Of a DNA stretch of 64,000 bases, positions 3,946 to 56,391 are shown piece by piece. The first letter of the stretch is position 1. Each line of letters starts with the position of its first letter. The notes below the pieces were generated by a model. That model searched no databases. It had not been told where the DNA came from and worked only from the letters and a program-made list of their open reading frames with translations. Both the position numbers and the translations under genes were made by a program. This DNA comes from a phage, in sequence record PZ862964.1. One strand, 5' to 3'.

Positions 3946-3975
3946 GTTTACAAGACTGTTCCTCTGTGGTACTAT
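3946..3975 (+). promoter_or_regulatory. early-type promoter nested in inverted repeat
   Basis: GTTTAC, 18 nt, TACTAT; arms CTGTTCCTC (3956-3964) and GAGGAACAG (3992-4000), the latter containing the SD. Confidence 0.55.
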
Positions 3976-4003
3976 ACAACTATCAACTACGGAGGAACAG
4001 AAA

Positions 4004-4117
4004 ATGAAAAAGATTGTTAAAGCTATATGGAATGTAGTTATAATACTAATAGTTTTGAGTATATTCCCAATCGTTTTAATGATTGATGTATTAAACGTTT
4101 ACTTTGGATTTATGTGA
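4004..4117 (+). CDS. hypothetical 37-aa membrane peptide
   Basis: ATG after SD GGAGGA (3991-3996); the longer ORF-track version crosses the promoter and is unlikely. Confidence 0.5.
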   Translation: MKKIVKAIWNVVIILIVLSIFPIVLMIDVLNVYFGFM

Positions 4118-24960: not shown

Positions 24961-24989
24961 TTTACAGAAGGGTAGTAGTGTGATACTAT
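24960..24989 (+). promoter_or_regulatory. early-type promoter nested in inverted repeat
   Basis: GTTTAC, 18 nt, TACTAT; arms GGGTA (24970-24974) and TACCC (24990-24994). Confidence 0.45.
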
Positions 24990-25019
24990 TACCCTATCAA
25001 AACTAATGGAGAAAAGAAA

Positions 25020-25088
25020 ATGTTCGCACCTTATATTATGGCAGCAGTTATGTTGGTCTGTTTATATCTTTTGATTAAAGCTTGCTAA
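25020..25088 (+). CDS. hypothetical 22-aa hydrophobic peptide
   Basis: MFAPYIMAAVMLVCLYLLIKAC after SD GGAG and an early-type promoter; weak evidence. Confidence 0.3.
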   Translation: MFAPYIMAAVMLVCLYLLIKAC

Positions 25089-31850: not shown

Positions 31851-33435
<1,585 letters not shown>

Positions 33436-33438
33436 GCT

Positions 33439-33499
33439 GTTTACAAGTCCCTCGTGTTGTGTTATAGTAGTCTTACTGACACAACATGAGGACTTTATG
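33439..33499 (+). promoter_or_regulatory. promoter/stem-loop cassette upstream of alc (copy 1 of 2)
   Basis: GTTTAC, 18 nt, TATAGT; 13-bp arms 33450-33462 and 33479-33491 enclose the -10 and pair with SD GAGGA. Confidence 0.6.
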
Positions 33500-34003
33500 A
33501 TGGATTTGCAGCTTATTACTACTGAAATGGTCGTTGAAGCATACGGTGATACTACAGATGGGATTTCTGTATTCAAAGGAAATCGTCGAGTTGGATATAT
33601 CACCGATCTTAAGAAAGATTTAGCTAAGCAAGTCAAGCGGAAAACGACCATTAAAGAATATCGAAATCGTCGTCTTGAGCAAGCCCGTGATATGCTTCCT
33701 GATGCGGTTGAGGAGATGAAAGTCTTTTTAGAAAATCAACTCGCTAAGTATGATTGTGAAGTGTTCATTAATCAGACTCAACCTAATGTTCATATCAATA
33801 GCTGTAAATGCTATATCATCGTTAATCCTTTAACGGGAAAACATCGTCTTGGAATTAGTAATCCAAATCGTAGCGCATCGGATATGGCAGAAGATGTTGC
33901 GGCATGCTTTAAAATTTCTAAATCTCCGGCGGAACATCATATTTTAATTAACGGTCTTTCTCAAGACGATATTATAGAGGTTATTAAAACTTTATGCAAT
34001 TAA
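33500..34003 (+). CDS. alc: Alc-like protein (inhibitor of host transcription)
   Basis: 167-aa ORF in the T4 alc position between rnlA and pseT; identity by size and synteny. Confidence 0.65.
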   Translation: MDLQLITTEMVVEAYGDTTDGISVFKGNRRVGYITDLKKDLAKQVKRKTTIKEYRNRRLEQARDMLPDAVEEMKVFLENQLAKYDCEVFINQTQPNVHINSCKCYIIVNPLTGKHRLGISNPNRSASDMAEDVAACFKISKSPAEHHILINGLSQDDIIEVIKTLCN

Positions 34004-36745: not shown

Positions 36746-36775
36746 GTTTACTTTACGGTAGAGTTGTGATATTAT
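36746..36775 (+). promoter_or_regulatory. early-type promoter nested in inverted repeat
   Basis: GTTTAC, 18 nt, TATTAT; arms GGTAGAG (36757-36763) and CTCTACC (36778-36784). Confidence 0.5.
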
Positions 36776-36805
36776 AGCTCTACCAAAACAAATGAGGAAA
36801 TTGAA

Positions 36806-37333
36806 ATGAGCGAATGGTTTGAAGAAGATAAGGTTTATCGCTTTAAAACTGGGTATAAAGATATTTTTAATGAAACTTGCGGGGCTAATAAACGAATTGC
36901 CCAGTTTATTGGGGAAAATTCATTTAAAGTAAAAATAGATCCTGCGAAGAATGTTATTAGCATTAAACGCGAAATTGATGACTGCTGGTATAAAGCTATT
37001 GATGTAATGGGCGAATCCTATAAAGATAGCCCGTTATTTTCAATTGCTTATATGTTAGAATATTCTTTTTTCGAAGAAGTTCAAAAAGATGATTCTGTCA
37101 GTAAATTTGAAATTAAAGCTGATAAAGAAATTAAGTGGAAAGTAGTAGGTATTACTGGTTGTATGTTTTATATCTATGCTCAAACTGATACGAAGGAAGA
37201 AGCTAAAAAGAAAGCTCTAGAATATCTTGAAGAGCATGAAGAAGGTCCGGTAATGATTACTCAAGATGCTGAATTAGTTTCTGTCAAATTAGTTAAAAAT
37301 GTTGAAAGTAAGGAGCTGGGATCAACATGCTAA
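36806..37333 (+). CDS. hypothetical protein (175 aa)
   Basis: ORF with SD GAGGAAATTGAAATG downstream of an early-type promoter. Confidence 0.55.
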   Translation: MSEWFEEDKVYRFKTGYKDIFNETCGANKRIAQFIGENSFKVKIDPAKNVISIKREIDDCWYKAIDVMGESYKDSPLFSIAYMLEYSFFEEVQKDDSVSKFEIKADKEIKWKVVGITGCMFYIYAQTDTKEEAKKKALEYLEEHEEGPVMITQDAELVSVKLVKNVESKELGSTC

Positions 37334-39414: not shown

Positions 39415-39422
39415 TATAAATA
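39415..39422 (+). promoter_or_regulatory. late promoter-like TATAAATA upstream of rIII
   Basis: TATAAATA immediately after gene 31 stop, 118 nt upstream of rIII ATG. Confidence 0.5.
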
Positions 39423-40139: not shown

Positions 40140-40169
40140 GTTTACAGTACGGTTCCTTTGTGATAGTAT
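40140..40169 (+). promoter_or_regulatory. early-type promoter
   Basis: GTTTAC, 18 nt, TAGTAT; imperfect flanking repeat CCTTTG / CAAAGG overlapping SD. Confidence 0.5.
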
Positions 40170-40196
40170 TATCTTACACAAACAAAGGAGAATAAA

Positions 40197-40529
40197 ATGA
40201 AAACGATTAATCTGAACTCTACAGTTAAAACTAAATGTTTCAATGGTAAATATAATGAAACTATGTGGTTCTTAATGGCAGTTGAAGGTGATATTATTGA
40301 AGTAGAAACAACAGAAGGTATGGGAACAGATTTCACCTTTACAATTCAAGTTCATAATTTCTTTACTGGTTGGATTTATGAATTGAATACAATAATCGTT
40401 GGAAAAATTGAACAAAATGAATTAGGCGAATGGCATTATGTTACAGCTCGCCAACGTGCCGAACGCTTAATTGAGAAGATGAAAAAAGTTGGTAAACTTG
40501 ACATGCAGCATTGGAAAGTAGTAAAATAA
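40197..40529 (+). CDS. hypothetical protein (110 aa)
   Basis: ORF after early-type promoter and SD AAGGAG. Confidence 0.55.
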   Translation: MKTINLNSTVKTKCFNGKYNETMWFLMAVEGDIIEVETTEGMGTDFTFTIQVHNFFTGWIYELNTIIVGKIEQNELGEWHYVTARQRAERLIEKMKKVGKLDMQHWKVVK

Positions 40530-40531
40530 TT

Positions 40532-40560
40532 GTTTACTTTGGTACAAGATATGATATTAT
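40532..40560 (+). promoter_or_regulatory. early-type promoter nested in inverted repeat
   Basis: GTTTAC, 17 nt, TATTAT; arms GGTACAAG (40541-40548) and CTTGTACC (40564-40571). Confidence 0.5.
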
Positions 40561-40596
40561 ATACTTGTACCGCAATTAAACATCTTGGAGAATAAA

Positions 40597-40962
40597 ATGA
40601 ACTACATTAACTTTGAACGTAAATATGTTTCTAATGGTATTGCAGGTTCTATTGATACCATCTGCCTTTGGAAACATCAAAATGGATCAGTATGCGAAAT
40701 TGAACAATATATGACTCCTAATTACGTTTATATGCGATTTGAAAACGGTATCACGGTTTCAATCACGATGGAAGGTTCCAACTTCAAAATCGCTCTGGAT
40801 GATGATTTCCGTCAACGCGATTTAGGGACTCATCCTTGCTGGAATGGCGTTAATCGCAAGCTTTTGGTTAAAACTTGGATTCGTCATATTCTGAGTAACA
40901 GAGCTAAACCTGAGCATCTTGAAGCAATCTTTGATGTAGTTCTTAATGAATTTGATATTTAA
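40597..40962 (+). CDS. hypothetical protein (121 aa)
   Basis: ATG after SD GGAG; ORF-track start 40585 is TTG. Confidence 0.5.
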   Translation: MNYINFERKYVSNGIAGSIDTICLWKHQNGSVCEIEQYMTPNYVYMRFENGITVSITMEGSNFKIALDDDFRQRDLGTHPCWNGVNRKLLVKTWIRHILSNRAKPEHLEAIFDVVLNEFDI

Positions 40963-44888: not shown

Positions 44889-44910
44889 AGGCCTTCGGGC
44901 CTTTAATTTT
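44887..44910 (+). terminator. terminator-like hairpin
   Basis: AAAGGCC-TTCG-GGCCTTT followed by AATTTT. Confidence 0.55.
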
Positions 44911-44917
44911 ATAAATA
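44910..44917 (+). promoter_or_regulatory. late promoter (TATAAATA) upstream of alt
   Basis: TATAAATA 23 nt upstream of alt ATG. Confidence 0.55.
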
Positions 44918-44940
44918 GAATAAACACTAGAGAGGATATG

Positions 44941-47034
44941 ATGGAACTCATTACAGAATTATTTGACGAAGATACTACTCTTCCGATTACAAACTTAAAT
45001 CCAAAGAAGAAAATACCACAAATTTTTTCAGTTCATGTTGATGATGCAATTGAACAACCAGGCTTTCGTTTATGTACCTATACGTCTGGAGGTGATACTA
45101 ATCGTGATTTAAAGATGGGCGATAAAATGATGCATATTGTTCCTTTTACATTAACTGCTAAAGGTTCAATTGCTAAATTAAAAGGTCTTGGTCCAAGCCC
45201 AATTAATTATATCAATTCAGTTTTTACTGTTGCAATGCAAACAATGCGTCAGTATAAAATTGATGCTTGTATGCTCCGTATTCTTAAGTCTAAAACTGCT
45301 GGTCAAGCTAGACAAATTCAAGTTATTGCTGATAGACTTATCCGTAGTCGTTCAGGTGGCAGATACGTCCTTCTTAAGGAACTCTGGGATTACGATAAAA
45401 AGTATGCATATATTCTTATACATCGCAAAAATGTATCACTAGAAGACATTCCAGGAGTTCCGGAAATTAGTACCGAGCTCTTTACTAAAGTTGAATCGAA
45501 GGTCGGTGATGTTTATATCAATAAAGATACTGGAGCTCAAGTAACTAAAAATGAGGCAATTGCAGCATCTATTGCACAAGAAAATGATAAACGTTCTGAC
45601 CAAGCTGTAATCGTTAAAGTTAAAATTTCCCGTAGAGCAATTGCGCAAAGTCAATCGTTAGAGTCTTCTAGATTTGAAAGTGAATTATTCCAGAAGTATG
45701 AATCTACAGCAGCTAATTTTAATAAACCTGCTACCGCTCCTTTAATTCCCGAAGCAGAAGAAATGAAGCTTGGAATTAATTCATTAGCTTCTAAAACCAA
45801 GGCAGCAAAAATTATTGCCGAAGGAACTGCAGATGAACTTCATTATGACTATAAATTCTTTTCAAAAAGTGAGGTTAATGAAGTTTCTGAAAAAATTAAA
45901 GATGTAATTCTTAATGCGATTAAAAATGAACCAACTACTTCAATAAAATGTTTAGAGAAATACGCAGCAGCTGTTAATCAACTCTTTGAAGAATATAAAG
46001 ATAATTGGCTTGATAAACATAATAAAACTCGTAAAGGGCAGCCAGATGAAGTCTGGGAAGAAATGACTAAAAATTCCTGGAACGCAGCAAAAACTAAATT
46101 CCTCAAAAGAATGATTTATAGTTTTTCTGGAATTGGTGCAGGTCCAATGATTGATATTACTATTGCCCGTGATGGTTCTAAATATACTCCATCACAAAAG
46201 CGCGGCATTAGAGAGTATTGTGGTTCAGGATATACTGACATCAATAATCTTCTTTTAGGTCGTTACAATCCAGAACGATATGATGTAATGAGTGAAAAAG
46301 AAATTGAATCTGCTATAACTAATTTAGATTCAGCTTTTGAAAATGGTGACCGCATACCGGAAGGCATTACAGTTTATCGTGCTCAAAGTATGACTGCTCC
46401 TATATACGAAGCGCTAGTTAAAAATAAAGTGTTCTACTTCAGAAATTTTGTATCTACTTCTTTAACTCCTATCATTTTTGGACGTTTTGGAATTACACAT
46501 GCTGGTATTGGTCTTTTAGAACCAGAATCTCGCAATGAATTAACAGTTGATAAAAATGAAGAAGGAATAACTATTAATCCAAACGAAATAAGAGCGTATA
46601 AAGAAAATCCTGAATACGTTAAAGTTCAAATAGGATGGGCAATTGATGGAGCTCATAAAGTTAATGTTGTATATCCAGGAAGTCTCGGAATAGCAACAGA
46701 AGCTGAAGTTATTCTACCGCGTGGATTGATGGTCAAAGTTAATAAAATAACTGATGCTTCTAATAATGACGGAACAACATCTAATAATACAAAACTCATT
46801 CAAGCTGAAGTTATGACCACGGAAGAGCTCACCGAATCGGTAATCTATGATGGAGACCATTTAATGGAAACTGGTGAATTGGTTGCAATGACAGGTGATA
46901 TTGAAATAGAAGACAGAGTTGACTTTGCATCATTTGTTTCATCAAATGTTAAACAGAAAGTAGAATCATCTCTTGGAATTATTGCGTCTTGCATAGATAT
47001 TACAAACATGCCTTACAAGTTCGTTCAAGGATAA
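44941..47034 (+). CDS. alt: Alt-like ADP-ribosyltransferase (paralog 1)
   Basis: 697-aa ORF MELITELFDEDTTLP; C-terminal R-S-E motif series (VYRAQS, FVSTS, EAEVILPRG); TATAAATA late promoter upstream. Confidence 0.85.
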   Translation: MELITELFDEDTTLPITNLNPKKKIPQIFSVHVDDAIEQPGFRLCTYTSGGDTNRDLKMGDKMMHIVPFTLTAKGSIAKLKGLGPSPINYINSVFTVAMQTMRQYKIDACMLRILKSKTAGQARQIQVIADRLIRSRSGGRYVLLKELWDYDKKYAYILIHRKNVSLEDIPGVPEISTELFTKVESKVGDVYINKDTGAQVTKNEAIAASIAQENDKRSDQAVIVKVKISRRAIAQSQSLESSRFESELFQKYESTAANFNKPATAPLIPEAEEMKLGINSLASKTKAAKIIAEGTADELHYDYKFFSKSEVNEVSEKIKDVILNAIKNEPTTSIKCLEKYAAAVNQLFEEYKDNWLDKHNKTRKGQPDEVWEEMTKNSWNAAKTKFLKRMIYSFSGIGAGPMIDITIARDGSKYTPSQKRGIREYCGSGYTDINNLLLGRYNPERYDVMSEKEIESAITNLDSAFENGDRIPEGITVYRAQSMTAPIYEALVKNKVFYFRNFVSTSLTPIIFGRFGITHAGIGLLEPESRNELTVDKNEEGITINPNEIRAYKENPEYVKVQIGWAIDGAHKVNVVYPGSLGIATEAEVILPRGLMVKVNKITDASNNDGTTSNNTKLIQAEVMTTEELTESVIYDGDHLMETGELVAMTGDIEIEDRVDFASFVSSNVKQKVESSLGIIASCIDITNMPYKFVQG

Positions 47035-47037
47035 ATC

Positions 47038-49095
47038 ATGGAACTTATTACAGAATTATTTGACGGCGCTTCGGCGCCGGTTGTTAACTTAAATCCTAAG
47101 CATAAAATACCTCAAATTTTTGCTATTCAAGCCGGTGAAGAAAGTGTGCTTCCTGGATTTAGATTTTGTACATACACCTCTGGTGGTGATACAAATAAAA
47201 ACGTTAAGCCAGGCGATAAAATGATGCATATCGTAATGATAGGTGTCAACGAGAAATTATCGCTGGTTAAGCTTAGAAACTTGGGTGGAAATCCAATTGG
47301 CGTCATTAATGCTGTTTTTGATACTGCTCTTCAAACAATGAAGCAGTACAAAATTGACGCGTGCTTATTCCGTGTACTAAAGAGTAAAACAAATGGCGCA
47401 GCTCGTCAAATGCAAGTTATTGCTGACCGTTTAGTACGTACTAAAGGAGCAGGTCGATATGTTCTTTTAAAGGAAATCTGGGACTATGATAAAAAGTATG
47501 CATATATTATGGTTTACCGTAAAAATGCCAATTTAGAAGACATTCCAGGTGTACCTCCTATTTCAACTGAGTTATTCACAAAAGTTGAATCAAAGGTTGG
47601 TGATGTTTATGTAGACGTTAAAACAGGTAATGCTGTTCCTAAAGCTGTCGCTGTTGCTGCTTCTATTGCTTTAGAAAATGATAAGCGCACTGATCAAGCT
47701 GTTATTCAGAAAACTAAAATTAGTCGTCGATTAGCAGCACAAGCTCAATATTCTACTGTTGATGCTTCACTTCAGGGCGATAGCTTCGCTGCCAAGAAAT
47801 ATCAAGAGTTTGAATCTAAAGTTCCGGTATATAAAGCAGAAGGACCAATGAACTCTGGCGTTATCCAGATTGGTTCAAACTTCAGCAAAGGAGCTATCGG
47901 TGGTATGAGAAGTGCTTCTCGTTTTAAATCTAATGATTATGAACTAGAAAGTTTCCGAAATCATATTGCATTAGCTCATGCACGTTTACGCGATCCATCT
48001 ATCAAGCTGCAGAGCGATATAACATATCAAGGTTCTCAAGAATATTTAAAGAATAAAGAATTTTTTGATTATAAAACTGATAAAATTTTAAGCGATCTTG
48101 CTGACATTAATATTTCTAATAGCTTTGATGTTATTAAGAAAATTATCAATGATTTAGTTAAAGGTTCTAAAGCTACATCAGATGAAAAGACAGCTATTAT
48201 TCAATTTGTAATGAATGGCATTTATAAATTGATTAATGAATCTGCTGCTCAGGCATATGAATACGCAAGCACCGAAGTAACTCCAAAAGGATTAACTCAA
48301 GCTGAATCTGATGTAATTGAAGATTATTGTGCAGATTCATATGTTGAAATGAACTCGTTCCTTTTGGGTAAACCAGATTCTACCCGTGAAGAATATATGG
48401 AACGAGCTATTAAACATATTGAGACGCTGGATTCTGCATTCGCCAAAGGATCAGTTCTTCCTCCAGGAACTACACTTTACCGTGGACAAGAAGTTACCTT
48501 TAAAACTTTGCGTCATAACATTGAAAATAAAATGTTCTATTTCAAGAACTTCGTATCGACATCACTTAAACCAAATATCTTCGGTGAGCATGGTAAAAAC
48601 TATATGGCTCTAGATGATTCCGGCGCAGTATTTTCTGGCGAAGGAGAAGGTTCCGTTGATGCAGAAGATTTAATGCATATGGGTAGTCATTCTACATATG
48701 CCAATGAAGATGCTGAAACTAGCGTGGGTATGGTAATTAAAGGAGCTGAGCGAATCAAAGTTATCGTTCCAGGTCATTTATCAGGATTTCCATCAGAAGC
48801 TGAAGTTATTCTACCGCGTGGAATTTTACTGAAGATTAATAAAGTAAGTACGTACTTTATGAAAGAAACTGCTTATAACAAGTATCTAATCGAAGGTACA
48901 ATCGTTCCTCCTTCTGAACAATTAGAAGAATCAGTATATGATGGAGACCATCTAATGGAAACTGGTGAAGTTCGTCCAATGGCTGGATTTAATCAATTCC
49001 TTGTAGAAGAATCAAAAGAAGAGGAAAACGAAGTTTCTCAAATCTTAGCTTCTTTGGTTAACATCAACGGAATGTCTAAAAAGTTCAAGATGTAG
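47038..49095 (+). CDS. Alt-like ADP-ribosyltransferase (paralog 2)
   Basis: 685-aa ORF MELITELFDGASAPV; same N-terminal block and R-S-E motifs (LYRGQE, FVSTS, EAEVILPRG); divergent middle. Confidence 0.8.
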   Translation: MELITELFDGASAPVVNLNPKHKIPQIFAIQAGEESVLPGFRFCTYTSGGDTNKNVKPGDKMMHIVMIGVNEKLSLVKLRNLGGNPIGVINAVFDTALQTMKQYKIDACLFRVLKSKTNGAARQMQVIADRLVRTKGAGRYVLLKEIWDYDKKYAYIMVYRKNANLEDIPGVPPISTELFTKVESKVGDVYVDVKTGNAVPKAVAVAASIALENDKRTDQAVIQKTKISRRLAAQAQYSTVDASLQGDSFAAKKYQEFESKVPVYKAEGPMNSGVIQIGSNFSKGAIGGMRSASRFKSNDYELESFRNHIALAHARLRDPSIKLQSDITYQGSQEYLKNKEFFDYKTDKILSDLADINISNSFDVIKKIINDLVKGSKATSDEKTAIIQFVMNGIYKLINESAAQAYEYASTEVTPKGLTQAESDVIEDYCADSYVEMNSFLLGKPDSTREEYMERAIKHIETLDSAFAKGSVLPPGTTLYRGQEVTFKTLRHNIENKMFYFKNFVSTSLKPNIFGEHGKNYMALDDSGAVFSGEGEGSVDAEDLMHMGSHSTYANEDAETSVGMVIKGAERIKVIVPGHLSGFPSEAEVILPRGILLKINKVSTYFMKETAYNKYLIEGTIVPPSEQLEESVYDGDHLMETGEVRPMAGFNQFLVEESKEEENEVSQILASLVNINGMSKKFKM

Positions 49096-49155
49096 TTTAC
49101 AAGTTCCTTATGTTGTGTTATAGTAGTCTTACTGACATAACATGAGGAACACAAA
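49095..49155 (+). promoter_or_regulatory. promoter/stem-loop cassette (copy 2 of 2)
   Basis: GTTTAC, 18 nt, TATAGT; 13-bp arms 49106-49118 and 49135-49147 with compensatory changes relative to copy 1. Confidence 0.6.
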
Positions 49156-49446
49156 ATGAAATCTTCTTTACGCTTTTTAGGTCAAGAACTTGTAGTTGAA
49201 GGCGTTATTCCTGCTGATAATGCTTTTAATGAAGCAGTTTATGATGAATTTATCAAAATTTTTGGAACAGATAAAAAGTTCGGAATTTTTCCTTCTGAAA
49301 ATTTTTCAAAGCCAGAACAGACTGAAAGTATTTTTCAGGGTGTAGTAACAGGTAAATTTGAGTCAGAAGCTCCGGTAAAAATTGAAGTTTATATTGAAGA
49401 CAGTTTAGTTGCTTCAGTTGCTGCTTTCATTTCATTCCGTAAATAA
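49156..49446 (+). CDS. hypothetical protein (96 aa)
   Basis: ORF with SD GAGGA behind an early-type promoter/hairpin cassette. Confidence 0.55.
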   Translation: MKSSLRFLGQELVVEGVIPADNAFNEAVYDEFIKIFGTDKKFGIFPSENFSKPEQTESIFQGVVTGKFESEAPVKIEVYIEDSLVASVAAFISFRK

Positions 49447-49452
49447 AAATAT

Positions 49453-49470
49453 GGGGACCGAAAGGTCCCC
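49453..49470. terminator. bidirectional terminator-like hairpin
   Basis: GGGGACC-GAAA-GGTCCCC with A-run on one side and T-rich tract on the other, between convergent genes. Confidence 0.6.
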
Positions 49471-49474
49471 ATTG

Positions 49475-53845: not shown

Positions 53846-54965
53846 TTTTAACCTTAACTGGGTCTATTGTTTCCAGTTTCGTTGCATTAGTGAACATATA
53901 TAGATGAGTTACTGAATTATTATTGGATAATTCATGGATAACTTCATCAACGTAAAATTCTGTTTTAAATTGGTTTTTACTATCATTAAAAATAATTTTA
54001 ACACCAGGAGTCAAGTTAAAATTACCGACAGTAGAACATTTAGCATAGCCGTCATATTGTGCCATAGTTTGAAGACGAATAGCTTCTTCATATCCATTCC
54101 TATAAGTCATTTCAGAATAAGCACCTGACCTTGACACTACAATAGAGTTTTCACCCTTTCCTGTAGTAATCATTGGCAATGAAGAATCTAAAAATGAATG
54201 AGCATAGATAGTAGCATTTTTCATTGGGTCACGTTTGTGAGGATTCGATTTAGTCAACCAAACGAAATCATATGCTAATGGATATTTTAATTCTTGGACA
54301 AATTGACCTATTAAAGATGGCTCACCGACAATCATTGGATATGGTTCTTGATTTATCATCATATCATAGTCCATCATGTTAACTCCCATGATGTCTTGCC
54401 ATACAAATACAAATTTGTCGCTTCCTACAGCTAGAGCAACTTCTCTTACATATGACAAATAGTTTTCAAATGTGCTAGTCCATGGAATATCAGGAACATA
54501 AGCATTTATAGCATTTATTGCTGGAGTTAATAATGTGCGATCCTGATAAATGACACCAAGCATTTCTTTTATAGATTCACCTGCATCAGGGAAAAATGGT
54601 CGACCAAATTTAAGATTTTCTATAGAATGAATAGTTCCCAATTCAATAGCAATGATGTTATCACCTTTTGAATCTACTGACACGGAAAAATGCTTACACC
54701 CATAAATTCGTGTTTTAACATTATTAATATCATTTGCATTAGCTACAGAAATCTGAATTATTTCATTTCCATCCATTTTTGTGTGGATATTTTTAGAATC
54801 ATAAAACTGCAGCATTCCTTCATTTCGGCCATAAAGAGAATCCCGCATAGTTAATGTGGTAATAGTAGCAGCTAATTCAACAAATCTATTATTACTCCAA
54901 GCGTCGTAGCTATCAAATAATTTAACGCTGAGATTTGGATATCCGGGGCGTTGCAACATACTCAT
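53790..54965 (-). CDS. 27: baseplate hub subunit gp27
   Basis: 391-aa ORF, size and position as T4 gp27. Confidence 0.8.
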
Positions 54966-55714
54966 TATTGTTTATCCTTCTCAATCAGTTTTAATACGAA
55001 TCCGCGCTCAGCAGGAATCATTTTCATTATTGAATTTAAGCTATAATTACTTTTTACGAGTGTGTGATTAATTTGATAAAAAGTAAATATCTCATCCGGG
55101 TTAACTAATAGCTTAAACACGTCTACTATATCAGTGTATTTTTTAATGTACTTATTACAACATGACATATGTAAAGTTAAATTAATAGGATTCATTGCAT
55201 CGAGAATTTTTTCTAATGTTTCTATCTCGATGGCATCAACAAGTTCTATTTGGCTTGATTCACTAATTTCCTTCCAATCATACCAAATTTCATCTACTTG
55301 AACAGAATGAATATTTTCAGTAATCATCTTTGCTTTATTTTCATAAAACTCAGAAGGAAACTTTAATTTAATTTTAACATTAGCTACATCAAAAACAGGT
55401 TCCTTTAATTCTTTTTGATATATTTCAAATGGAACTGTCTTTTCTTTTTTACATTTTGGACATACAAATGTGACCGGTACTTTAGTTTTACCTATCGACC
55501 CTACAAATACCTGCAAAAATATAAATGGTTGCCAAGTCTTCGGATAGTCTCCAAAATAATCATCAATTAAATCAGTAATTATTTCTTTTTGTTCTTGTGG
55601 TGACCGATGTTCTATATCGTTTCGAACTAACAAAAAATCTCGATAATCTTCTACCGTAAATGGTTTAAAACGATGAACACCATCTGGTAATTTACAACGA
55701 ATAATGTTTGCCAT
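54965..55714 (-). CDS. 51: baseplate hub assembly protein gp51
   Basis: 249-aa ORF with SD AAGGAG; size and position as T4 gp51. Confidence 0.8.
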
Positions 55715-55731
55715 AGATGCTCCTTTTATTC

Positions 55732-55743
55732 TATTTATAAATA
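55732..55743. promoter_or_regulatory. overlapping divergent late promoters for genes 51 and 26
   Basis: TATTTATAAATA reads TATAAATA on both strands in the 50-bp gap between gene 51 and gene 26. Confidence 0.6.
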
Positions 55744-55764
55744 TGATAAATAAAGGAGCTAAAT

Positions 55765-56391
55765 ATGTATGAATACAAATTTGATGTGAGAGTTGGTTCT
55801 AAAATAATCAATTGTCGCGCATTCACGCTTAAAGAATATCTAGAACTTATTACTGCCAAAAATAATGGTTCCGTAGAAGTAATTGTTAAAAAGCTAATCA
55901 AAGACTGCACAAATGCAAAAGATTTAAACCGCCAAGAATCAGAACTATTGCTGATTCATTTATGGGCACATTCTCTTGGCGAAGTTAATCACGAAAACTC
56001 CTGGAAGTGCACCTGTGGAACTGAAATACCAACCCATATAAATCTATTACATACACAAATAGATGCACCAGAAGACCTCTGGTATACACTGGGTGACATT
56101 AAAATTAAATTCCGATACCCTAAAATTTTTGATGATAAAAATATAGCACACATGATAGTATCATGCATAGAAACGATTCATGCTAACGGGGAAAGCATTC
56201 CAGTTGAAGACTTAAATGAAAAAGAACTGGAAGATTTATATTCTATCATCACAGAGTCAGATATTGTAGCTATAAAAGATATGCTTTTAAAACCTACTGT
56301 TTATTTGGCTGTTCCAATTAAGTGTCCAGAGTGTGGAAAAACCCATGCTCACGTAATAAGAGGCCTCAAAGAGTTCTTTGAGTTACTATAA
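55765..56391 (+). CDS. 26: baseplate hub subunit gp26
   Basis: 208-aa ORF with SD AAAGGAG behind a TATAAATA late promoter. Confidence 0.8.

Follow-up and report, generated by a model that had tools for sequence, protein, structure and literature searches.

In bacteriophage T4, the genes e, soc, 49 and I-TevI carry a helix that hides the Shine-Dalgarno (SD) sequence and/or the AUG in long transcripts; a nested promoter gives a short transcript without the 5' strand of this helix, which is translated (PMC3014915, section 29). Synthesis of T4 lysozyme was reported to be reduced 100-fold by the masking hairpin (PMC3014915). A second group of described elements, the PeSLs, are intergenic cassettes of ~60-100 nucleotides (nt) that combine a strong early promoter with a stem-loop containing G-T pairs and have an SD and a start codon at their 3' end (Arbiol et al. 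2010; Comeau et al. 2014). Both ingredients, masking of a ribosome-binding site around a nested promoter and recombining promoter/stem-loop cassettes, are already known in T4-like phages. Here we describe two near-identical promoter/hairpin cassettes, one in front of alc and one in front of alt.-3, in a 64,000-nt stretch of phage DNA (sequence record PZ862964.1; one strand, 5' to 3'), to which we refer as the window. The window belongs to a Tequatrovirus (T4-like phage) with 97-99% identity to hundreds of T4-type genomes, and its + strand corresponds to the early (minus) strand of T4. What is new here is the covariation of the hairpin across genera and the copy event from alc to alt.-3, not a new kind of system.

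We regard an SD-masking hairpin with a nested early promoter as the best reading of the two cassettes, at a probability slightly above even. A previous sequence-only reading of the window had proposed that read-through transcripts fold and hide the SD and that transcripts from the nested promoter are translatable, as described for T4 e and soc. The analogy agrees with the published account cited above. Structure, SD accessibility and covariation are in line with the proposal; SD masking is not universal across genera, and the functional part we infer.

The cassettes are located at 33439-33495, between rnlA and alc, and at 49095-49150, between an alt-like gene and alt.-3, where two near-identical copies had been noticed before. 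They have 50/54 nt in common, and a degenerate 54-nt pattern matched the window exactly twice, with 0 matches expected (100 shuffles). Their parts are as follows:

33440..33445, + strand: -35 box TTTACA of the alc early promoter; G33439 before it gives the T4-type GTTTAC
33463..33468, + strand: -10 box TATAGT of the alc early promoter, with TG at -15/-14; top of the stem and loop
33445..33463, + strand: 5' arm of hairpin 1, within the promoter spacer; C33451 is bulged in the minimum free energy (MFE) and centroid structures
33466..33477, + strand: apical 4-base-pair (bp) stem and tetraloop of hairpin 1; the predicted start falls inside
33478..33495, + strand: 3' arm of hairpin 1, including the SD GAGGA (33488-33492)
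49096..49101, + strand: -35 box TTTACA of the alt.-3 early promoter
49119..49124, + strand: -10 box TATAGT of the alt.-3 early promoter, with extended TG
49103..49119, + strand: 5' arm of hairpin 2, 17 nt, no bulge
49134..49150, + strand: 3' arm of hairpin 2, including the SD GAGGA (49144-49148)

Both promoters match the sigma-70 consensus at 10/12 positions, with a 17-nt spacer and an extended -10 TG. GTTTAC is the -35 consensus of T4 early promoters (PMC1524935); the earlier description as GTTTAC with an 18-nt spacer is better replaced by TTTACA, 17 nt and TG-TATAGT. A predicted early promoter is annotated at the same place in one deposited genome, and an A/T-rich run (33385-33420) is found upstream of copy 1. 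From sigma-70 geometry, transcription is predicted to start at about A33475 and about 49131, 7 nt past the -10 box. No TATAAATA late promoter was found inside either cassette.

Folding of both loci, which the sequence-only reading had proposed as a check, revealed robust hairpins with the SD buried in the 3' arm. The outer helix comprises 18 pairs with one bulged C in copy 1 and 17 pairs in copy 2, and each copy has a 4-bp apical stem. Fold energies were -26.3 kcal/mol (z = -5.8) for copy 1 and -25.7 kcal/mol (z = -6.3) for copy 2, with 0/200 shuffled sequences as stable. The same helix appeared in the MFE and centroid structures of 141-nt read-through contexts, and the SD GAGGA was wholly paired in both structures of the 64-nt and 141-nt RNAs. 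An arm upstream of the -10 box does pair with the SD-containing arm, as had been described; the helix is longer than the 13 bp then given. RNAs beginning at the predicted nested start were unstructured (z = +0.8 and +1.6). In read-through RNA, 7.1 kcal/mol (alc) and 12-14 kcal/mol (alt.-3) are needed to open the SD, versus 0.7-1.9 kcal/mol in the short nested-start RNA; the hairpin raises this cost by 5-12 kcal/mol. A search of Rfam yielded only chance matches to miRNA precursors (18-19 bits versus thresholds of 95-135), and a known RNA family was rejected, as no Rfam model reaches its gathering threshold.

Strong evidence for a conserved hairpin comes from changes on both sides of the alc stem across genera. 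A tblastn search with Alc gave 1137 phage records, and the regions upstream of alc were examined in 11 other genera and 49 IMG/VR loci. About ten alc lineages, including Tequatro-, Karam-, Gelderland-, Jiaoda-, Dhaka- and Winklervirus and several IMG/VR lineages not assigned to a genus, share one layout: GTTTACA, followed at once by the 5' arm in the spacer, the -10 box in the loop and a 3' arm ending in the SD. The arm sequences differ under this common layout (TCTCCGTTTAGTT/AACTAAACGGAGA, TCCTCATCAG/CTGATGAGGA, CCTCTCGTTTTTG/CAAAAACGAGAGG, TCCCCATTTTGTTGTGT/ACACTAACAAAATGGGGA), and the 5' arm opens with an anti-SD (TCCTC, TCTCC, CCTCTC or TCCCC) that follows the SD variant. Spacers paired with their own 3' regions gave a median duplex energy of -19.4 kcal/mol, compared with -9.1 kcal/mol for non-cognate combinations.

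For pair counts, a covariance model was built from a gapless 10-sequence seed and used to align the cassettes. The model recovers the element in all SD-masking lineages and, within the window, at 33440, 49096, 3947 and 40141. In the model alignment, 95.9% of the cells are standard pairs versus 69.7 +/- 1.1% after shuffling (0/500) and 40-51% with slid partners; both sides have changed in 12/13 pairs, and the covariation score is 0.598 versus 0.170. Restricted to sense-strand alc rows, the alignment showed 95.1% paired cells and changes on both sides in 9/13 pairs. When pairs were tabulated by position from promoter geometry alone, the pattern was unchanged: spacer positions 7-16 carry 2-4 types of Watson-Crick pair. 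Plain MAFFT placed the 3' arms in inconsistent registers, and its alignment of the cassettes was unusable for pair counts. Covariation across related phages, which had also been suggested as a check, shows that the hairpin at alc is kept over many genera via true double-sided changes.

This pattern bears on a further explanation, in which a dimeric DNA-binding protein, a repressor of the phage or the host, binds the inverted repeat as its operator and so shuts off both early promoters together. The repeat is centred on the -10 box and shared near-exactly by two T4 promoters, and shut-off of T4 early promoters has been described as not completely understood (PMC3014915). The arms, however, are 13-18 nt long, contiguous and fully complementary, they are completely different between genera, their separation varies, and G.T pairs are tolerated. 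The covariation fits pairing of nucleic acids and not a protein half-site, and we rejected the operator as highly improbable.

Several points weigh against SD masking as the role of the hairpin. In Tegunavirus, Kanagawavirus and three lineages of Acinetobacter phages, alc has a hairpin over the -10 box whose 3' arm ends 2-13 nt before the SD, and in Mosigvirus, Gaprivervirus, Tulanevirus and two other lineages alc is without such a hairpin. A hairpin that straddles the -10 box is thus shared more widely than any other feature, a masked SD included; SD masking is the commonest elaboration at alc and is not universal. The pair counts were made on an alignment that had itself been fitted to the model structure. 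A comparison of strand stabilities gave a mixed result, with the sense strand more stable in 30/46 cassettes, and A.C mismatches (G.U on the other strand) occur in L118, L120 and RB18. A template-switch (quasipalindrome) mutation can keep inverted repeats complementary in the absence of selection on RNA. A literature search gave no mapped 5' ends, read-through RNA measurements or long-versus-short translation data for alc or alt.-3, and the benefit of blocking late synthesis of Alc or Alt.-3 is not obvious.

We also compared the copies within Tequatrovirus. The two copies of the window differ at four positions (33449/49105 C/T; 33453/49109 C/T; 33454/49110 G/A; 33482/49138 C/T), and not at three as had been counted. 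T4 (AF158101) has both copies, which are one loop base apart from each other within the 54-nt shared block. In the window, the copies are set apart by one-sided transitions via G-U wobble, with no double compensatory changes, and the fourth gives copy 2 a U-A pair where the T4-type sequence has a C that is bulged or mismatched. The sequence-only reading had taken three such changes, all keeping the pairing, as a sign of selection on RNA structure. Between the copies pairing is indeed kept; as evidence for selection the wobble changes are weak, because a transition in such a stem preserves pairing about half of the time.

A wider sample of Tequatrovirus copies was drawn from IMG/VR, metagenomes and GenBank. 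Among the 8 stem substitutions counted in it, 7 keep or improve the pairing, including the C-to-U change in the alt.-3 copy of the window that converts a C.A mismatch to U-A. The sole pair-breaking substitution among the copies examined is found in the alt.-3 cassette of RB18 (L162), where a G-C pair in the middle of the stem becomes A.C and the fold is weaker, at -17.2 kcal/mol. A proportion of 7/8 is suggestive (P of ~0.04 under a 50% null). Most of the remaining Tequatrovirus variation lies in the loop, between the -10 box and the start. The scans yielded 7 true copies in IMG/VR and 5 in a metagenome collection, every one ahead of alc or alt.-3, and the remaining 15-mer matches are chance. 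No third genomic location was detected in these scans, which demanded the exact T4-type loop 15-mer.

The occurrence of a second copy at alt.-3 can be followed by comparison with other genera. The early promoter of alt.-3 in Gelderland-, Dhaka-, Karam-, Mosig-, Gapriver- and Marfavirus contains a small in-spacer hairpin (e.g. CGCCAAGGATGGTG) and leaves the SD free, and the sequence from the SD onward (GAGGAAAACAAAATGAAA) in these six genera is homologous to T4 alt.-3. Since the alt.-3 promoters of other genera differ in type, the cassette at T4-type alt.-3 is specific to its lineage. From GTTTACA to CATGAGGA it is the same as the alc cassette, and these are precisely the stretches common to both ancestral promoters. 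The alt.-3 copy therefore probably arose in the Tequatrovirus lineage and was copied from alc by recombination or gene conversion. A promoter-to-SD segment of ~46 nt from the alc cassette would have replaced the older alt.-3 promoter, with GTTTACA and (A)CATGAGGA as the ends of the exchange. On this sequence comparison, the near-identity of the copies reflects a recent copy or gene conversion and not independent selection. Mosigvirus alc has the spacer-hairpin type, so the exchange may have gone both ways. Small in-spacer hairpins of the form CCAC/CACA...GGA...GTGG/TGTG just before the -10 box are found in many early and middle promoters of T4-like phages (loci L101-L106, L094); examples are the rnlA promoter CCACATGGAATGTGG (32259-32290, +) and the alt.-3 promoters of the six other genera.

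A cassette evidently copied between loci 15.6 kb apart would also be compatible with a feature of the DNA itself, such as a recombination hot spot, a cruciform, quasipalindrome template switching or a spacer that tunes promoter strength, with no role for an RNA hairpin. PeSLs are documented as recombination sites (PMC2839356), and the mixed sense and antisense stabilities over the genera point in the same direction. Within Tequatrovirus, by contrast, the strand comparison is clear: the G.U pairs of the stem are A.C mismatches on the other strand, and the sense folds are more stable (-24 to -26 kcal/mol versus -15 to -22 kcal/mol for antisense). The G.U versus A.C asymmetry was not used as proof of RNA function, as it is mixed across genera. 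A feature of this type also does not predict the constant inclusion of the SD, a 5' arm that tracks the SD variants, or a geometry that stays fixed while the arms differ completely between genera, and we consider it improbable.

A wider and rather doubtful proposal is that the cassette is a family-wide, portable 'reverse temporal gate', in which a module of ~46 nt would combine strong immediate-early expression with a translation block on later read-through RNA, perhaps with Rho-dependent polarity, and would be moved between distant genes by gene conversion. If this were true, a single gene conversion (from alc to alt.-3 in Tequatrovirus, possibly the opposite way in Mosigvirus) would be enough to pass on a complete temporal programme.

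To place the cassettes in their transcription units, we analysed the neighbouring genes and signals:

32259..32284, + strand: putative MotA-type middle promoter of rnlA (TGCTTCC, 13 nt, TACTAT), assigned against the consensus of PMC1524935
32311..33435, + strand: rnlA (gp63), the gene upstream of cassette 1, whose transcripts would read into the cassette
33497..34003, + strand: alc (Pfam ALC, E = 4.8e-91), with ATGs at 33497 and 33500, of which the T4 annotation uses the second
44910..44917, + strand: late promoter TATAAATA, preceding alt (44938)
47038..49095, + strand: full-length Alt-like ADP-ribosyltransferase, upstream of cassette 2
49156..49446, + strand: alt.-3 (96 amino acids (aa), Pfam DUF5498), the last early gene ahead of the convergent late gene 54
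49451..49472, both strands: hairpin between alt.-3 and gene 54, which scores as a terminator on both strands

The putative middle promoter of rnlA would supply read-through RNA once the early promoters are shut off. At the second locus, a terminator upstream of alt is followed by the late promoter TATAAATA. No terminator motif was found between 48900, where the scan started, and 49451, so that for the scanned part the late promoter at 44910 is the likely source of late RNA reading through into alt.-3. The hairpin at 49451-49472 is the real end of the alt.-3 transcription unit. The alt genes of the window are tandem full-length paralogues (44938-47034 and 47038-49095, +; 698 and 685 aa); in T4, alt precedes two short remnants, alt.-1 and alt.-2. 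Time-resolved omics data list alc, alt.-3 and 30.8 as early both as RNA and as protein (PMC9697503, main text and supplementary files 4 and 6), rnlA as early RNA and late protein, and alt as late (PMC9697503).

With SD masking as the preferred reading, the cassette would be a composite control element between genes, in which an RNA hairpin incorporates a strong sigma-70 early promoter. Its 5' arm would be the promoter spacer and its 3' arm the first part of the 5' untranslated region including the SD. RNA from its own promoter would start in the loop (~33475, ~49131), lack the 5' arm and have a free SD, so that alc and alt.-3 could be translated immediately after infection. RNA from upstream would carry both arms, fold and mask the SD; at alc this would be rnlA RNA from middle or earlier promoters, at alt.-3 it would be RNA of alt and the alt-like gene that was started at the late promoter (44910). 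Only transcripts of their own early promoters would thereby be translated into Alc and Alt.-3, and an early gene would stay silent on middle or late read-through RNA.

Should this mechanism hold, it would explain how T4-type phages keep some immediate-early proteins strictly early, namely Alc and Alt.-3 (a DUF5498 protein of unknown function), although such genes adjoin upstream genes transcribed at middle or late times with no intervening terminator. The principle of e and soc, that transcript length sets translatability, would be extended to early promoters, and the stem-loops over the -10 box in PeSL-type cassettes would gain a functional reason. The 54-nt block could serve as a compact part that joins a promoter to a translational insulator against read-through, and as a covariation-supported test case for RNA-seq and proteomics time courses of T4.

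The cassettes have much in common with the masked genes e, soc, 49 and I-TevI. The SD is sequestered in the long RNA, the promoter (judged by its predicted start) is placed within the region encoding the 5' strand, and the phage, the compact intergenic layout and the predicted effect size are alike. In contrast to these genes, the nested promoter of alc and alt.-3 is an early sigma-70 promoter and not a late TATAAATA promoter, which reverses the temporal logic; the 5' arm is the promoter spacer itself; and the masking at alc and alt.-3 is a prediction. Mechanistically, the cassettes belong with e, soc, 49 and I-TevI despite the inverted timing. Neither alc nor alt.-3 is among the masked genes listed in PMC3014915. 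Our literature search found no T4 transcription-start map and no account of the alc and alt.-3 hairpins; the older T4 literature was outside its reach, and a prior description is possible.

The cassettes also resemble the PeSLs, which are repeated in a genome and recombine between copies, in keeping with a copy from alc to alt.-3 (PMC2839356; PMC4122927). They have the strong sigma-70-like early promoter preceded by an AT-rich region and the intergenic position of PeSLs, as well as the stable stem-loop with an SD and a start codon at its 3' end, and correspond to the subclass 'overlapping the -10 box' (PMC2839356). PeSLs have been described as terminator/attenuator and recombination modules, not as SD masks. 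Drawings of the PST and T4 PeSLs place the stem-loop immediately before the promoter (PMC4122927, Fig. 3 legend), whereas the stem of the alc and alt.-3 cassettes extends across the -10 box and on through the SD. An enrichment in hyperplastic regions beside ORFans is known for PeSLs, in contrast to alc, which is a conserved gene. Two near-identical copies of the cassette are present in the window, with no associated indel.

Intrinsic (Rho-independent) terminators likewise have a stable GC-containing hairpin between genes, right after a stop codon. Unlike these, neither cassette hairpin is followed by a U-tract (GGACUUUAUG, GGAACACAAAAUG; tails CUUUAUGAUG, ACACAAAAUG), the loop of 18 nt or more holds the -10 box of a promoter, and a terminator scanner called none there. 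An intrinsic terminator was rejected because the U-tract is absent after both hairpins. The same result bears on a PeSL-type attenuator or 3'-end element, which would act mainly on the rnlA or alt message, either by stopping or attenuating it or as a protective 3' stem-loop after processing; the promoter inside would save space, and the pairing of the SD would be a by-product. One PeSL stem-loop cuts downstream lacZ as much as the rrnB T1 terminator (Arbiol et al.), the intergenic spaces are just ~60 nt, and hairpins that straddle the -10 box with a free SD, at alc of other genera and at 36747, 24961 and 40533 in the window, would suit such a role. Besides the absent U-tracts and the negative scan, the terminator of the alt.-3 unit at 49451-49472 speaks against it, and so do the roughly ten lineages in which the stem reaches exactly to and through the SD and the 5' arm stands right after the -35 box with an anti-SD tracking the SD variant. 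We judge this explanation, the main rival of SD masking, to be possible but unlikely.

Burial of a downstream SD by a helix in polycistronic RNA is also known from coupling hairpins of the MS2/Qbeta type. Translational coupling at the cassettes would mean that the base of the stem is opened when a ribosome finishes translating the upstream gene, so that alc and alt.-3 are translated in proportion to the upstream gene. In favour of coupling, the rnlA stop codon (33433-33435) is 9 nt from the first paired base of the alc hairpin and the TAG of the alt-like gene (49093-49095) 7 nt from that of the alt.-3 hairpin, the partner of the SD is formed by the outermost 5-7 nt of the 5' arm, within possible reach of a terminating ribosome, and the spacing is fixed in all genera by the intervening -35 box. 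In contrast to the MS2/Qbeta type, the 5' arm is outside the upstream coding region, so that upstream translation should not open it, and an internal promoter gives an unmasked form. The entire 5' arm lies 3' of the stop codon and is therefore never traversed by elongating ribosomes, a ribosome at the stop codon would not get beyond the first few pairs of the 17-22 bp helix, and the omics data list Alc as an early protein and the product of rnlA as a late one (PMC9697503). Coupling is quite improbable.

At least four cassettes with an early promoter in a hairpin are present in the 64-kb window (33440, 49096, 3947 and 40141). The cassette at 3947-4006 (+) is unrelated in sequence and forms a 15-bp stem (CTGTTCCTCTGTGGT/ACTACGGAGGAACAG; -23.2 kcal/mol, z = -7.1) that masks the SD GGAGG of a 37-aa open reading frame (ORF; 4004-4117) in the denB-ndd hyperplastic region. 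The cassette at 40141-40199 (+) is weaker, with a 9-bp stem in which the spacer pairs with AAGGAG (z = -2.6); it precedes a 30.8-like ORF (40197-40529), and upstream of it is rIII with its late promoter at 39415.

At three other early promoters (36747-36808, 24961-25022 and 40533-40599, +), a hairpin of 12-14 bp encloses the -10 box and stops 10-25 nt short of the SD (z = -3.2 to -4.3). The function of hairpins that enclose the -10 box only, which are also present at alc of Teguna-, Kanagawa- and Acinetobacter phages, is not explained by SD masking. A cross-pair shuffle test on all promoter-like sites is a poor statistic for weak stems and was used descriptively only. A second family of repeated promoters in the window shares the block GTGGTACTATACAACTATC, consisting of the -10 box and the initial transcribed region, at four early promoters (3441, 3947, 7086 and 24248, +).

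A further inverted repeat is found between the divergent late genes 51 (-, 54965-55714) and 26 (+, 55765-56391), whose SDs are mutual reverse complements (GCTCCTTT/AAAGGAGC; 55715-55764) and flank overlapping palindromic late promoters TATAAATA (55732-55743). Its fold energy is -13 kcal/mol (z = -3.0), and it matches the covariance model with E = 0.025.

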